From the NCBI GenBank assembly GCA_039630085.1, contig JBCNVM010000004.1, positions 32,001 through 96,000 on the forward strand: 64,000 bases of DNA, written 5' to 3'. The position numbers and the translations under genes were made by a program. This document shows positions 54,120 to 58,612 of this stretch, one piece after another. The notes under the pieces are model-generated. The model did not search any database, had not been told where the DNA came from, and saw only the letters and a list, made by a program, of their open reading frames with translations. Source of the DNA: Candidatus Caldarchaeales archaeon. Lineage in GTDB: Archaea; Thermoproteota; Nitrososphaeria_A; Caldarchaeales; Calditenuaceae. Numbering within the stretch: position 1 is the first letter of the stretch; every line of letters starts with the position of its first letter.

Positions 54120-54587
54120 TCAGATCTCCGGGCGCGAGTTGAACTTCACCCATTCCGAGACCCTGAACTCGTTCGCCCTGTAGTCGGACCTGTACGGCTT
54201 GATGTCGAGCACCGGCGTCCCGTCGAAGAGGTCGAGGCCCTCGACGTGGAGAAGCCTTCCCTCCCTCCTCACAAGCCTGACCAGGGTCAGCGCGATCGGG
54301 TTCGGCCTGACAGGCGAGTCGGTTGCGAAGACACCTAGCTCCGGTAGCTCCTCCTCCCTGAAGCCCTTCCTGAGGAGCCTCCTCGGCTTGACCCTGAGGA
54401 GCCTCTGCCGGACCCTGTCCAGATAGGCGATCAGGAAGAGATGCGTGTACCCCTCGATCCCGTCGAGTGCCTCCTCGAACTCCGGGAAGACCTCGACGAC
54501 CCCCCGCAGCTCCCCTGACCTCTCCCTGACCTCCTCCTCGGAAGCATCGACCCTCACAACGCCGACGGCCCTGAGGGTGAACTCCAC
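54120..54587 (-). CDS. trmO: tRNA m6t6A37 methyltransferase TrmO/TsaA family
   Basis: GVFATDSPVRPNPI, GLDLFDGTPVLDIKPY. Confidence 0.9.
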   Translation of the reverse strand: MEFTLRAVGVVRVDASEEEVRERSGELRGVVEVFPEFEEALDGIEGYTHLFLIAYLDRVRQRLLRVKPRRLLRKGFREEELPELGVFATDSPVRPNPIALTLVRLVRREGRLLHVEGLDLFDGTPVLDIKPYRSDYRANEFRVSEWVKFNSRPEI

Positions 54588-54631: not shown

Positions 54632-55408
54632 TCACATCGGCCTCCTCAGCCTGCGGTGGAGCATCAGGAAGACGACGGAGCCGTGGACCAAGGGCGTCAG
54701 CCAGAGGAGGAGGGCCTCGGTCCAGGTGAGGCTGACGAGGCCCGCGGCCGCCTGCATCAGCCTCGCGGGAGAAGTGGTAGGGGAGACGAACGCCAAGTAC
54801 CTCAGCTCGGGCCACGGAATCCTCTCGAGCGGGTAGAAGACCGGAGGCAGGTAGGAGAAGACGCCGGTGAAGATCGGCGAGTACACCCAGAGGTCCCTGA
54901 TGTCCCGGGCGAACGTGCTGATGTAGTAGCCTATCATCGAGACGATCGCCCACGTCGCCGCCAACGCCCCGAAGAAAACAGCCCAGCTCCAGAGCTGGTT
55001 AACCCCCGCGAGGGCCCAGAGCAGGACTCCGAAGACCAGCATCCCCGGGAGCGCGTTGATCAGGTTCCCGAGCGCCAGCCCCACCGCGTAGGGTATCAGG
55101 CCTCCCTTGGTCAGGACGAACATCGACTCGATCTTCAGGATCAGCCTGTTGAAGGCCGCGTCCGACTCCATCGTGATCGAGTTGGCAACGACGATCGAGG
55201 TCATCCCGCCTATCAGGGCGTAGGGCACGATCTCCCGTATCCCGTAGACCGAGAGGAAGAGGAGGAAGGCCATCGGCGCCAGCATCGGCGAGAGCGACCA
55301 GAGGGGGTTCTGCTTGAACGGGATCACCCCGAATAGCATCGTCGATGCGTAGACGGACTTCAGGAAGGAGACCAGGCCCTCAGCGAGCCTCCTCCTCAAC
55401 GTGACCAC
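54632..55408 (-). CDS. ABC-2-type exporter permease
   Basis: 6 TM segments; PPVFYP...P motif. Confidence 0.8.
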   Translation of the reverse strand: MVTLRRRLAEGLVSFLKSVYASTMLFGVIPFKQNPLWSLSPMLAPMAFLLFLSVYGIREIVPYALIGGMTSIVVANSITMESDAAFNRLILKIESMFVLTKGGLIPYAVGLALGNLINALPGMLVFGVLLWALAGVNQLWSWAVFFGALAATWAIVSMIGYYISTFARDIRDLWVYSPIFTGVFSYLPPVFYPLERIPWPELRYLAFVSPTTSPARLMQAAAGLVSLTWTEALLLWLTPLVHGSVVFLMLHRRLRRPM

Positions 55409-56294
55409 CCGCCAGCAGGATGAAGGCGTCCTCGAGCGAGGTCCGGGAGACGTTCACCCTCCACCCCCTCCAGATCGCGACGTCAGCGAGGTCCCTCGCG
55501 CCAGACCCGGTCGTCAGGACCCTGAACCGGTCTCCGATCCTCCTGACCAGACCGTAGGCGTTGAGCTCATCGGGGTCCGCGTCGCCCTCGACGTCGACCC
55601 TGTACTCGTACTCGACGGCCCTCATCACCTCCTCGACGCTCCCAGTGACGATGATCCTTCCGTAGTTTATGATCGAGATCCTGTCGGAGATCGTCTCGGC
55701 CTCCTCCATGTTGTGCGTGGTGACTATGACCGTCCTCCCCTCCTCGGAGGCCCTCCTGATCTGGGACCACATCGTCGTCCTAGAGATGGGGTCGAGTCCG
55801 ATAGTAGGCTCGTCGAGGAAGAGGACATCGGCCTCGGTCGCCATCGCCATAGCGACGTAGACCCTCTGCCTCATCCCTCCCGAGAGGTTGCCGCAGATCA
55901 CGTCCTTGACCTCCCAGAGCTCCATCGCCTCGAGGTACTCCCTCGCCCTCCTCGCGGCCTCGTGACCCGGCATGCCCCTCGCGATCAGGTAGTAGTAGAC
56001 GTGGGCCCACGGCGTCGAGAGGTTCGACGGCCTCCCCTCCTGCGGCACCACCGCGATCCTCCTCCTGATCCATCCGGCGTCCGCGACCACGTCGCGTCCA
56101 AGGACCCTGACCGTGCCCTTGCTGGGCTTGAGGAGCGTGCAGGCTATCCTGATGAAGGTCGTCTTCCCGGCTCCGTTCCTCCCGAGGAGCGCGAAGACCT
56201 CGCCCTCGTTGACCGCGAGCGTCGCGCCCTTCAGGACCCAGTTCTGGCCGTCGTAGGTCTTCCAGAGGTCCTCCGACTCGACCGCCGCGCCCAT
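55380..56294 (-). CDS. ABC exporter ATP-binding protein (DrrA-like)
   Basis: GRNGAGKTT, LSGGM, FLDEPTIGLD, TTHNMEEA. Confidence 0.93.
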   Translation of the reverse strand: MGAAVESEDLWKTYDGQNWVLKGATLAVNEGEVFALLGRNGAGKTTFIRIACTLLKPSKGTVRVLGRDVVADAGWIRRRIAVVPQEGRPSNLSTPWAHVYYYLIARGMPGHEAARRAREYLEAMELWEVKDVICGNLSGGMRQRVYVAMAMATEADVLFLDEPTIGLDPISRTTMWSQIRRASEEGRTVIVTTHNMEEAETISDRISIINYGRIIVTGSVEEVMRAVEYEYRVDVEGDADPDELNAYGLVRRIGDRFRVLTTGSGARDLADVAIWRGWRVNVSRTSLEDAFILLAGGHVEEEAR

Positions 56295-56332: not shown

Positions 56333-57022
56333 TCACCCACGCCTCCTGATCAGCGCGTGCGCGAGCCTGCCCTCCAGCACGAACTCGAGGAGCTCGTTGC
56401 CGGTGATCCTCGACCAAGCCCTGACCTCCCGCTCGGCGTTCTCGTCGGCCTCCGCTACCAAGTGGATGACCTGTCCGGGAGGGACCTGCCTGATCGCGTC
56501 GGCCAGAACCAGCAGCGCTTGGCTGCACTCGACTCCCAAGGCCGCCATCACGACGTCCGGGACCTCCTTGAAGCACACGATCCCCCTGCTTCTTATCTCC
56601 TCGCTGAGGGCCTCGGCCACCTCACCGAACGTCCTGAGCCTCTCCCTGTATCCGGCCTCGAGCGGCCTCAACTTCGCGATCCAGCCCCGGTTGTATGGGT
56701 CCGACTGGCAGAGGTGCGGGACCTCAAGTAGCTCCCGGTTCGCGTCGACGACCTCGGCCCTGAACCTCGCGTTAACGTGCCCCACGAACTTCTTGGCCTC
56801 GACGAACGCGATCGACCTGCCCTCCTCGACGACGGTCCCGGGAGGCTTCGGCCTAACGGATGTCACCTTGCCCCACTTCGTCTGAGTAGTCGGGAGCACT
56901 CCCACGGTCATGATGTCGCCCTCCTCCATGTACCAGCTCTCGTTCTCGAGGTCGTAGAGGGCCCTCCTCGGTAACGCGCAGCCGTTCACGACCAGCACCT
57001 CCTGTCCCTCCGAGACGCCCAT
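56333..57022 (-). CDS. GcvH/LbpA-like lipoyl-domain protein fused to a TusA/SirA-like domain
   Basis: VNGC..P...Y....W, VEAKKFVG (lipoyl-Lys position), N..L...P.L...DPY..GW; then GVECSQ...PGQVIHLVA...EVRAW...GNELL...IRR; start ATG 57022. Confidence 0.8.
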   Translation of the reverse strand: MGVSEGQEVLVVNGCALPRRALYDLENESWYMEEGDIMTVGVLPTTQTKWGKVTSVRPKPPGTVVEEGRSIAFVEAKKFVGHVNARFRAEVVDANRELLEVPHLCQSDPYNRGWIAKLRPLEAGYRERLRTFGEVAEALSEEIRSRGIVCFKEVPDVVMAALGVECSQALLVLADAIRQVPPGQVIHLVAEADENAEREVRAWSRITGNELLEFVLEGRLAHALIRRRG

Positions 57023-57137
57023 TCGCTCCGCGCCCCACATTCGGTGGCCGGCTTTAAGCCGTGCAGGTCCACTCCGACCGAGGGACACCGTCGACCGCTG
57101 AAGGCTGAAATTCGGGCCGGCGGACTCGGGTTCGGGA

Positions 57138-58427
57138 GTGAGGGTCTACATCGGTATCGACGACACCGACTCCAAGAGGTCGATGTGCACGACCTACGTC
57201 GGAGCGGTAGCGCTGAGGAGGGCCGAGTCGGTCGGAGCCAGAAGGCTGGACTACCCGTGGCTGGTGAGGCTCAACCCGAACTGCCCCTACAAGACGAGGG
57301 GGAACGCGGCCGTCTGCCTGCCCGTCGAGGTCGACCCCTCGGCCTTCGAGGACGTCTGGGAGGTCGTGGTGGAGACCGTCGAGGAGCTCGCGGACCTGGA
57401 GAACGGGGCCGATCCTGGGGTCGTGGCGCTCGGGGAGGAGTCGAGGCCGGCGCTTCGCGGGCTCTACTTCGGGGCGGTCAGGGAAATCGTCGAGCTCGAT
57501 GAGGTCGTGGAGCTCGTCCGGTCGTCCGCGATCAGGCACTGGGGCTACGGCGAGATGAGGGGGCTGATCGGCGCTACGGCGGCCGCGGCAGCAGCTGAGG
57601 AGACCCTCTCGACGTTCGAGCTGCTGGCGTACAGGTCCGAGGAGATGTGGGGGAAGGAGAGGCTTGTCGACCCGGAGTCCGTGAGGGAGATGGACAACAT
57701 CTACCGAGGCGTCACCTTCGACAACTACGACTACGAGAAGGACGAGGTCAGGGTCACGCCTCACACGCCCTGTCCGGTCCTCCTCGGGATCAGGTCGGTC
57801 CGCGCGGACGTCCTCCCGGGAGCGCTGTCTGTCTTAAGGGTCGGCGAGCCGATCGAGTTCTTCGAGGTCTTCAGGACGAACCAGGCCACCGACATCCACT
57901 ACGTCGAGCGGCAAGTAAGATCGGTCAGGCCCCTAGAGTCCGTCGTCGTGAGGGGCCTCGTCGCGGGCAAGCCAAGGGTCATACCCGGAGGCCACGTCCT
58001 ACTGGAGGTCTCGGACGGAACGGGTGAGATCACGGTCGCCGCCTACGAGCCGACTGGCGAGCTGAGGAGGGTCGTGGAGAAGCTCGAGGTCGGTGACGAG
58101 GTCGCGGTCTACGGCGCCGTCAAGCCGAAGCCGGAGGGCCTCACGCTGAACCTCGAGAAGCTCGAGGTAGTCAGGCTGAGGACGGTCTACGCGGAGCGCG
58201 CCCCTAGGTGCCCGGACTGCGAGAGGACTATGAAGTCCGCGGGCTTCGGGAAGGGATACAGGTGCAAGGGATGCGGCAGGGTCGAACCGAACGCGATGAA
58301 GGTCAGGGTGAGGGTCGAGAGGGGCATTAGTGAAGGGGTTTACGAGGTCGCGGTCTCGGCGAGGCGGCACCTGGTCAAGCCGCTCTCGTTGCTGAACCTT
58401 AGCCGATCCGACGCCTGTGCAGCCTAA
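57138..58427 (+). CDS. tiaS: tRNA(Ile2) agmatinylcytidine synthase
   Basis: IGIDDTDS..CTTY, VRLNPN.PYKTRGN, TNQATD.H, GGHV, AYEPTG, Zn ribbon, RRHLVKP. Confidence 0.94.
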   Translation: MRVYIGIDDTDSKRSMCTTYVGAVALRRAESVGARRLDYPWLVRLNPNCPYKTRGNAAVCLPVEVDPSAFEDVWEVVVETVEELADLENGADPGVVALGEESRPALRGLYFGAVREIVELDEVVELVRSSAIRHWGYGEMRGLIGATAAAAAAEETLSTFELLAYRSEEMWGKERLVDPESVREMDNIYRGVTFDNYDYEKDEVRVTPHTPCPVLLGIRSVRADVLPGALSVLRVGEPIEFFEVFRTNQATDIHYVERQVRSVRPLESVVVRGLVAGKPRVIPGGHVLLEVSDGTGEITVAAYEPTGELRRVVEKLEVGDEVAVYGAVKPKPEGLTLNLEKLEVVRLRTVYAERAPRCPDCERTMKSAGFGKGYRCKGCGRVEPNAMKVRVRVERGISEGVYEVAVSARRHLVKPLSLLNLSRSDACAA

Positions 58428-58612
58428 TCCTCATCCCTCGGCCTCGAGAGGAGCGCGACCAGCAGCATCAGTGCTGCGGCGATCAACATTAGGGGCAGGA
58501 GGAACCTAAGGGCCACCCTCAGCCCAGCGACCACGCCGTAGAGGAACGTTCCGAGCAGCGAGAGAACCGTGACGATCGCCGCCGCCAGCAGCACCAAGGC
58601 CCTTGGGCTCAA
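58424..58612 (-). CDS. Small two-TM membrane protein
   Basis: 62 aa hydrophobic ORF filling the gap between tiaS and ychF. Confidence 0.55.
   Translation of the reverse strand: MSPRALVLLAAAIVTVLSLLGTFLYGVVAGLRVALRFLLPLMLIAAALMLLVALLSRPRDED

Follow-up and report, generated by a model that had tools for sequence, protein, structure and literature searches.

A conserved LbpA-like/TusA-like fusion protein linked to a rhodanese in Caldarchaeales, a candidate lipoate-independent sulfur carrier

The fusion gene and the predicted fold of its product

The stretch of DNA analysed here, referred to as the window, comprises 64,000 nucleotides of contig JBCNVM010000004.1 from a Candidatus Caldarchaeales archaeon (assembly GCA_039630085.1), and carries at 56333..57022 a gene whose product joins an LbpA-like domain to a TusA-like domain in a single chain (Table 1). 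The gene is genuine and conserved rather than a fortuitous open reading frame (ORF): full-length relatives with identities of 25-86% occur in 34 of the 401 genomes sampled from the phylum. A GTG 22 codons upstream, at position 57088, could also serve as the start codon; the closest homologues (P0002-P0004) start where the window gene has its ATG (57022). The source genome, denoted G000, is a 66-contig assembly that is 89.9% complete. In what follows G, C and L numbers stand for genomes, contigs and loci, P numbers for fusion proteins, and g and f numbers for genera and families.

The Pfam family GCV_H was matched by residues 23-141 of the fusion protein with an E-value of 1.6e-22 and a score of 80.1 bits (cut-off 22.2), and the Pfam family TusA by residues 162-226 with an E-value of 5.4e-6 and a score of 26.6 bits, slightly below the cut-off of 28.6, which is passed by some of its relatives (34.7 and 30.3 bits). 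The NCBIfam models for GcvH scored far under their cut-offs (NF002270, 75.5 against 117; TIGR00527, 43.9 against 115.85), as did those for TusA. A model of the fusion calculated with AlphaFold2 using ten family members as input has a predicted local distance difference test (pLDDT) value of 92.0 and a predicted template modelling (pTM) score of 0.85. When this model was searched with Foldseek, its N-terminal half matched the H-protein of T. thermophilus (1onl_A; E 6.1e-13, template modelling score by target 0.89) and the C-terminal half matched E. coli TusA (3lvj_C; E 2.0e-5, template modelling score by target 0.81), with 1dcj as a further match (E 1.1e-3). A phmmer search against the PDB also gave a TusA match, encompassing fusion residues 154-228 (E 0.0018). 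The proposal of a first-pass annotation, made from the sequence alone, that a GcvH-like N-terminal domain and a TusA-like C-terminal domain share one chain is thus borne out by Pfam, AlphaFold2 and Foldseek, and all of the motifs it listed are present, namely VVNGC (C15), VEAKKFVG (K77 and K78), GIVCF (C150) and GVECSQA (C166).

Conserved residues

Residue counts were obtained from an alignment of 39 full-length members of the fusion family. The two cysteines that the first-pass annotation had pointed out at the flanks of the N-terminal domain correspond to the signature pair of LbpA and are each conserved in 38/39 members, P0020 being the sole member without C15 and likewise the sole member without C150. 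The third cysteine, which had been placed at the persulfide position of TusA within a non-canonical CSQA, is invariant (39/39) and opens helix 166-172 of the AlphaFold2 model. CPxP is the canonical TusA motif; in the family CPGP occurs twice and CPET three times, the remainder being of the form C[SANED]xx, so that Cys-Pro is found in 5/39 members.

Residue 78 occupies the position of the lysine in the VESVK hairpin of H-proteins, which is their lipoylation site. The E-x-x-K hairpin and G81 are kept around this position, and residue 78 itself is Arg in 24 members, Lys in 12, and Val, Thr and Ser in one each. The exchange occurs even between close relatives, as P0004 (locus L004), which is 66% identical to the window protein and has the same tiaS and ABC neighbours, already has Arg. 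A lipoate-to-persulfide relay, as envisaged in the first-pass annotation, is therefore not a property of the family. Among those profile matches that were examined, stand-alone GcvH-like proteins with both cysteines keep the lysine in 26/28 cases, so that, as far as the aligned sequences indicate, loss of the lysine goes with the fusion and is specific to it.

Family and distribution

A word-indexed search identified ten close clusters, all of 223-229 residues and all from hot-spring archaeal metagenome-assembled genomes labelled Thaumarchaeota, Nitrososphaerota or Calditenuaceae. A search of 1.84 billion representative proteins with the family profile returned 2490 matches at E <= 1e-3, with about 40 full-length two-domain proteins (215-250 residues) among the best 150 of these; named members come from Aigarchaeota, Bathyarchaeia and Ca. 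Pelearchaeum. The ESM Atlas holds eight clusters with GCV_H plus TusA, and the three displayed contain 76-135 members, mostly from Archaea. Within the sampled phylum the fusion is borne by the family of the window, f1 (genera g1-g3, not g4), by the sister family f2, and by five genomes of f46, f51, f56 and f58. The sampled genomes are kin, and all adjacency and occurrence counts given below accordingly exceed the true number of independent events. In the loci of relatives, genes were called by a simple longest-ORF rule.

In a quick maximum-likelihood tree of N-terminal domains, all 39 fusion domains lie on one side of a branch with a Shimodaira-Hasegawa approximate likelihood-ratio test (SH-aLRT) support of 96, together with six short rows resembling truncated fusions. 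A single origin of the fusion N-terminal domains would fit this result, obtained with a tree of 101 rows and 140 columns for which SH-aLRT was the sole support measure and from which a gap filter had dropped the classical GcvH rows and the GcvH-like protein of the source genome. A match with an in-frame TGA in G058 and G231 was considered as a split fusion and rejected, because it represents a distinct stand-alone LbpA gene translated past its stop codon. No description of an LbpA/TusA fusion was found in the literature searched, which did not include a 2019 review of TusA diversity.

The rhodanese partner

In most lineages outside the genus of the window the fusion adjoins a two-domain rhodanese of about 280 residues, of the tandem thiosulfate-sulfurtransferase type. 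Using the ortholog from the source genome as the query, a rhodanese match was located at most 334 bp from the fusion in 25 of 29 further genomes whose loci were retrieved; the four exceptions are three g1 genomes and G353, where the distance is 4.4 kb. By coordinates the two genes are adjacent in four more genomes (G393, G066, G010 and G026). The adjacency spans five taxonomic families, with both genes on the same strand in f1, f2 and f46 and in convergent orientation in f51 and f58. Across the sample the rhodanese is present in 106/401 genomes, which include every genome with the fusion (34/34) and 72/367 of those without it, and the groups of the window's order that are without the fusion (g4, f3 except G387, f4 and G231) are also without the rhodanese. 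The rhodanese is the one family-wide partner of the fusion.

In the genus of the window the two genes became separated and the rhodanese moved to another contig, and because it lies there it was overlooked in the first-pass annotation. The copy in the source genome is 77-82% identical to the fusion-adjacent copies of f1 (L007, L011, L058 and L062) and 60-65% identical to full-length copies of other families. Compared over the same loci, the rhodanese is better conserved than the fusion, with identities to the source-genome copy of 56-82% against 25-49%. The gene order rhodanese, fusion, ABC ATPase, permease and SIS protein in G297 (genus g3) bridges the arrangements. The active loop reads C-R-I-G-E-R-S/A in 9/9 aligned sequences, and a CRxGx[R/T] loop is the classical rhodanese type according to Tanabe et al. 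(2024, PMC11094781). The best NCBIfam model was that of 3-mercaptopyruvate sulfurtransferase, with a score of 134.8 against a cut-off of 250.

Of eight genomes with the rhodanese and without the fusion, five have a small Cys-bearing ORF of 77-91 residues beside the rhodanese. In a search of 11 sequences, three of these ORFs gave weak matches to the profile of the fusion C-terminal domain (E 6e-5 to 9e-4), two of the three also matching Pfam TusA (E 9e-6 and 0.0018), and the other two are TusA-like by eye only (E 0.079 and 0.36). In G387, which has no fusion, the rhodanese and a small TusA-like ORF are followed by SufC-like and SufB/D genes, an arrangement that hints at sulfur supply to Fe-S cluster assembly.

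Several further genes were observed near rhodanese copies. In the source genome a gene for a metallo-beta-lactamase (MBL)-fold hydrolase of 296 residues comes after the rhodanese gene, in the same orientation, and a peroxiredoxin gene and an Rdx-family gene lie upstream. A radical-SAM protein with an HMPTM-type zinc ribbon (579-609 residues) adjoins the rhodanese in f51 and f16, and in two further genomes, of families f5 and f58, a conserved ORF of about 100 residues follows it, which ends in ...TCPDD, has no Pfam match and is unrelated to TusA by sequence.

Relation to LbpA, TusA and GcvH

In Cao et al. (2018, PMC6067878), LbpA proteins are described as GcvH-like, with a strictly conserved lysine and with two cysteines, one near the N- and one near the C-terminus, that are missing from GcvH. 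The best stand-alone matches of the fusion profile display this pattern, with x-G-C-x-x-P-E-D-L followed by ESGKWVGP and then by a C-terminal cysteine, and the columns of C15 and C150 coincide with the cysteines of LbpA proteins that are defined by their context in loci L067 and L085. The first of these, in G313, adjoins two LplA-B_cat ligase genes, two radical-SAM genes and tusA. The second lies in G058, of the sister family f2, in a cluster encoding TauE, DsrE, TusA (CPMP), an LplA-B_cat ligase, a Lys-bearing two-Cys LbpA and DsrE, with divergent Fer4 and CCG proteins; an Arg-type fusion is carried by the same genome at another place. The N-terminal domain has an isoelectric point of 5.8, the family median being 5.9 and all 39 members having a value of at least 4.5; this corresponds to the LbpA side of the contrast drawn in a preprint (10.64898/2026.10.01.755906). 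By its sequence, the N-terminal domain is of the LbpA type.

The fusion thus shares with LbpA the GcvH-like fold and a cysteine near each end of the domain, and LbpA is a known partner of TusA, the two proteins of Aquifex co-purifying according to PMC11094781. It differs from LbpA in that the strictly conserved lipoyl-lysine is Arg in 24/39 members, in that the N-terminal domain is covalently joined to a TusA domain and has its own branch in the tree, and in that it is not encoded with sHdr, sLpl(AB) or LipS1/S2. With TusA (E. coli TusA/YhhP; IscS-TusA complex 3lvj) it has in common a two-layer alpha/beta fold, an invariant cysteine opening helix 1 and, in most relatives, a D-D-P-type segment after strand 2, whereas its C-terminal domain has CSQA and a Pfam score under the cut-off and is not free-standing. 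The fold and the hairpin bearing position 78 are common to the fusion and GcvH, but the fusion has extra cysteines and an extra domain, an unconserved lysine and scores below the NCBIfam GcvH cut-offs, and no T or P protein was found in its genome.

Rhodanese-DsrE-TusA cascades (Tanabe et al., 2024, PMC11094781) likewise have a CRxGx[R/T]-type rhodanese encoded beside a TusA-type acceptor, and dihydrolipoate accepts rhodanese sulfur in vitro, as cited in PMC6067878. In contrast to these cascades and to thiosulfate sulfurtransferases with dithiol acceptors, the acceptor here is one polypeptide with a cysteine pair in the place of lipoamide, and the module is without DsrE and has no linked terminal oxidising complex. 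The fusion departs from a defining feature of each of its parents, the strict lysine of LbpA and the CPxP motif and Pfam cut-off of TusA, and its gene context is neither that of GcvH nor that of LbpA. It would best be classed as a derivative of the LbpA-TusA pair that is fused and lipoate-independent.

Glycine cleavage, lipoylation and sulfur genes in the genome

GCV_T and GDC-P were not found in the source genome at its 89.9% completeness, and GCV_T was found in 0/7 genomes of genus g1, the source included, and in 0/8 of genus g2, all of which bear the fusion where sampled. The first-pass annotation had reported the window to be free of gcvT, dsrE, CCG/Hdr and lipoate-ligase genes, and whole-genome searches agree: none is located on the window's contig, DsrE, LplA-B_cat and CCG matches lie only on other contigs, and GCV_T was found nowhere in the genome. 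The CCG matches are large HdrD-like or LUD-domain fusion proteins and not an sHdr cluster. A link to sHdr-type sulfur oxidation, one of the roles that had been proposed, was not supported, as the source genome has no sHdr-like cluster and G058 has its classical cluster separate from the fusion. The fusion module thus depends neither on sHdr-type sulfur oxidation nor on glycine cleavage.

A tblastn search of the source genome with the ligases and radical-SAM proteins of the G313 cluster found no homologues of sLpl(AB) or LipS1/S2. An argument from a lack of lipoylation machinery was nevertheless dropped: PF03099 found no ligase, but PF21948 found LipB (229 residues, LplA-B_cat 123 bits), with LipA (292 residues) beside it on contig C23. 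One E2-type lipoyl domain is encoded on contig C14. Approximately 3.5 kb past the end of the window lies the only other GcvH-like gene of the genome. Its product (139 residues, GCV_H 127.9 bits) reads ESVGGSHEV where solved H-proteins read ESVKA, with Gly in place of the lipoyl-lysine, and gives the impression of an H-protein that has lost its lysine and persists in the absence of glycine cleavage.

Two canonical TusA genes are present at other places in the genome, one in a row with genes for a DsrE2-like protein and a type III sulfide:quinone reductase (SQR)-like flavoprotein on contig C45, and the second beside a gene for a YedE/TsuA-like membrane protein on contig C12. The possibility that the fusion stands in for a missing cysteine desulfurase was rejected, since Aminotran_5 matches (SufS-like, approximately 500 bits) were obtained in 61/61 genomes of the order.

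Genes adjacent to the fusion in the window

The first-pass annotation placed the fusion head-to-head with tiaS and near trmO, an arrangement that the coordinates and the Pfam and TIGR00104 matches confirm. The tiaS gene, scored against NF040849, reached 419 bits (cut-off 600), and adjoins the fusion only in L003, L004, L013 and L024, rhodanese neighbours being found elsewhere; g1 is the one genus with trmO after the ABC genes (L003, L004, L006 and L013). The link to tRNA modification that had been drawn from these genes is therefore not supported, and both are local synteny only. The chemistry of TiaS and TrmO is not known to need a sulfur donor.

An ATPase gene of the ATP-binding cassette (ABC) type lies beside the fusion in L003-L006, L013, L024-L026 and L035/L058 and is not adjacent to it elsewhere, so that the ATPase is a possible operon partner in genera g1 and g3 only. 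The gene that overlaps its end encodes a candidate ABC-2-type permease with no Pfam or NCBIfam match, and is conserved with the ATPase in the same loci. As a family-wide partner the ABC exporter was rejected, being found beside the fusion only in these two genera. A SIS-domain protein of about 385 residues, whose gene comes after the fusion in just two genera of the window's family, g2 and g3, and lies on contig C45 of the source genome, was likewise treated as synteny. Between tiaS and an Obg-like GTPase gene lies a hydrophobic ORF of 62 residues, which is kept in L003 (89% identity) and partly in L013.

Table 1. Positions of the fusion gene, its key codons, neighbouring genes and further loci mentioned in the text. 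Positions are those of the window unless a locus or contig is named.
Feature	Position	Strand	Remarks
LbpA-like/TusA-like fusion gene	56333..57022	-	stop codon included; 229 residues, no internal stops
N-terminal domain, residues 1-146	56585..57022	-	GcvH fold, LbpA type by sequence
Linker and TusA-fold C-terminal domain, residues 147-229	56336..56584	-	Pfam, Foldseek, phmmer
Cys15 codon	56978..56980	-	N-terminal LbpA-type cysteine; gca on + strand, TGC on -
Lys78 codon	56789..56791	-	H-protein lipoyl-lysine position; aligns with K of VESVK in 1onl and 1dxm (phmmer)
Cys150 codon	56573..56575	-	C-terminal LbpA-type cysteine; within conserved C-F-x-x-x-P-D linker
Cys166 codon	56525..56527	-	TusA active-site cysteine position; motif CSQA
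ABC ATPase (DrrA-like)	55380..56294	-	38 bp downstream of the fusion stop; Pfam ABC_tran; TIGR01188 232.8 bits, under cut-off 312
ABC-2-type permease candidate	54632..55408	-	258 residues; overlaps the end of the ATPase gene
trmO	54120..54587		TIGR00104 111.5 bits, cut-off 93.25
tiaS	57138..58427	+	divergent, 115-bp spacer; Pfam TiaS_FLD, TiaS_TCKD and Zn_ribbon_TiaS all above cut-offs
Hydrophobic 62-residue ORF	58424..58612	-	
Rhodanese ortholog of the source genome	G000:C2:28390-29226 (L063:6391-7227)		different contig from the fusion
MBL-fold hydrolase	L063:7292-8179 (G000:C2)		
Other GcvH-like gene	L001:1471-1890 = G000:C34:99512-99871	-	
DsrE2-like, TusA and type III SQR-like genes	L065:7823-9824 (G000:C45)		
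YedE/TsuA-like gene and second TusA gene	L066:4924-6500 (G000:C12)		
Classical LbpA cluster of G058	L085:373-5812 (G058:C6)		
Rhodanese, small TusA-like ORF and suf-like genes of G387	L084:688-3918 (G387:C14)		
Radical-SAM gene beside rhodanese	L055:7713-9449; L083:5101-6930		f51 and f16
ORF ending ...TCPDD after rhodanese	L077:3685-3993; L082:934-1236		f5 and f58

Proposed mechanism and alternative explanations

On balance the fusion is probably, if by no means certainly, a lipoate-independent, three-cysteine sulfane-sulfur carrier that works with the rhodanese. The observations on which this proposal is based are that two sulfur-trafficking folds share one chain, that the three cysteines are conserved whereas the lysine is not, and that the gene is linked to and co-occurs with that of the rhodanese. 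Sulfur would likely be passed from cysteine to cysteine without lipoate, because the three cysteines are kept, the lysine usually is not, and the rhodanese is a near-constant partner. The fusion would have been built by joining an LbpA-type module carrying C15 and C150 to a TusA-type module carrying C166. The rhodanese would take up the outer sulfur of thiosulfate, or sulfur from another sulfane donor, as a persulfide on its own cysteine and would hand it to C166 of the TusA domain, and the C15/C150 dithiol may then assume the role proposed for the dihydrolipoamide arm on true LbpA. In doing so it could either accept the sulfur for hand-on or resolve the persulfide with release of sulfide, in which case the resulting C15-C150 disulfide would be re-reduced by a cellular reductant. 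The direction in which sulfur moves, what happens chemically at C15/C150 and the physiological purpose, which may be thiosulfate or sulfane-sulfur assimilation or else detoxification, are all inferred from these observations. Assimilation or detoxification is favoured over energy metabolism with low confidence, because no terminal oxidising complex was found in the source genome; means of sulfur entry are encoded there, namely the YedE/TsuA-like protein with its TusA gene and the DsrE2-TusA-type III SQR-like cluster.

Several observations weigh against this proposal. The rhodanese is also found in 72 sampled genomes that have no fusion and so does not require it, and in the window's genus (L003-L006, L013 and L024-L026) the two genes are not adjacent, the fusion there preceding the ABC exporter. 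The source genome encodes LipA and LipB, and the window protein is among those with a lysine at position 78. Two histidines, H187 (29/39) and H222 (32/39), are also well conserved and compatible with a metal site. Finally, a predicted complex of the source-genome rhodanese and the fusion scored 0.55 (runs of 0.55, 0.50 and 0.61, best of three controls 0.13), with at least 86% contact agreement between runs and a partner pLDDT of at least 88. This falls in the weak band of the calibration, in which 116 of 157 solved complexes but also 2 of 215 mismatched pairs attained the mark, scores of 0.60 or less accounting for only 18 of the 157 solved complexes and for both mismatches; the modelled complex lends the partnership weak support.

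The conserved histidines, together with the three near-invariant cysteines, the scarcity of Cys-Pro (5/39) and the Pfam TusA score under the cut-off, would also suit a thiol-disulfide redox or metal-binding protein, in which C15, C150, C166 and His form a sensor, a chaperone or a Zn/Fe site and no sulfane sulfur is handled. This is considered unlikely, as C166 lies exactly where TusA has its persulfide cysteine, at the beginning of helix 1, the partner conserved with the fusion is a sulfurtransferase rather than a redox enzyme or a metal transporter, and both parent families are sulfur-trafficking proteins. Slightly less likely again is that the protein is a lipoylated carrier in this organism, with K78 octanoylated and lipoylated by LipB and LipA and the lipoamide arm shuttling sulfur to or from the fused TusA cysteine, as in the relay of the first-pass annotation. 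K78 aligns with the lipoyl-lysine of solved H-proteins within a hairpin that is kept, both enzymes are encoded on contig C23, and the fusion and the single E2-type lipoyl domain are the sole candidate acceptors found, the other GcvH-like protein having Gly. Against this stand the excess of Arg over Lys at position 78, the Arg of P0004 despite its having the same neighbours, the retention of Lys in 26/28 stand-alone two-Cys proteins, which makes the loss specific to the fusion, and the negative tblastn result for sLpl(AB) and LipS1/S2 in the source genome.

It is very improbable that the fusion serves its neighbours in the window, in tRNA modification or in concert with the downstream ABC exporter. 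The close spacing of tiaS (head-to-head across 115 bp) and of the ABC pair (38 bp downstream, followed by trmO) and the recurrence of the ABC pair in genera g1 and g3 would be in keeping with such a role, but neither tiaS nor the ABC pair is adjacent in the other 24 loci with a rhodanese neighbour, and the tRNA enzymes concerned are not known to require a sulfur donor. The remaining alternative, an H-protein for a glycine cleavage system encoded elsewhere, had been named in the first-pass annotation among the outcomes that would refute its reading, and is hardly credible. GCV_H is the strongest domain match and some public records label relatives as glycine cleavage system H protein; however, the NCBIfam GcvH cut-offs are missed widely, the lysine is unconserved, and GCV_T and GDC-P were not found in the source genome nor GCV_T in the g1 and g2 genomes searched.

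In cytoplasmic sulfur trafficking, LbpA and TusA are known to act together as two separate proteins. According to the preprint (10.64898/2026.10.01.755906), AlphaFold models of LbpA2 place its two conserved cysteines close enough for a disulfide, and these are dispensable for recognition by the ligase, their function being left open. A natural fusion in which the LbpA and TusA cysteines are kept while the lipoyl-lysine drifts to Arg points to the cysteines as working parts, and the fusion and the rhodanese form a small, soluble, thermostable two-protein system for direct tests of the cysteine-pair idea. New here, to the extent that the literature searched shows, are the linkage to the rhodanese, the data on their co-occurrence and the comparison with the co-resident classical LbpA cluster in G058. 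The fusion also defines a conserved rhodanese-linked module in the window's order (relatives labelled Calditenuaceae or Caldarchaeales) and in a few other Thermoproteota lineages.

A more specific version of the three-cysteine carrier, to be regarded as doubtful, is that C15 and C150 are a protein-built replacement for the lipoamide arm and form with C166 and the rhodanese a minimal, cofactor-free machine. Such a machine would split thiosulfate or other sulfane sulfur to give either sulfite plus sulfide or a persulfide for onward transfer. If this were true, the so far unexplained cysteine pair of LbpA would itself be a sulfur-handling site and lipoate would be dispensable in such chemistry. 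P0020, in which both C15 and C150 are missing, retains the lysine and a canonical CPGP, and this single case would, from its sequence, fit an either/or use of the lipoyl arm or the cysteine pair.

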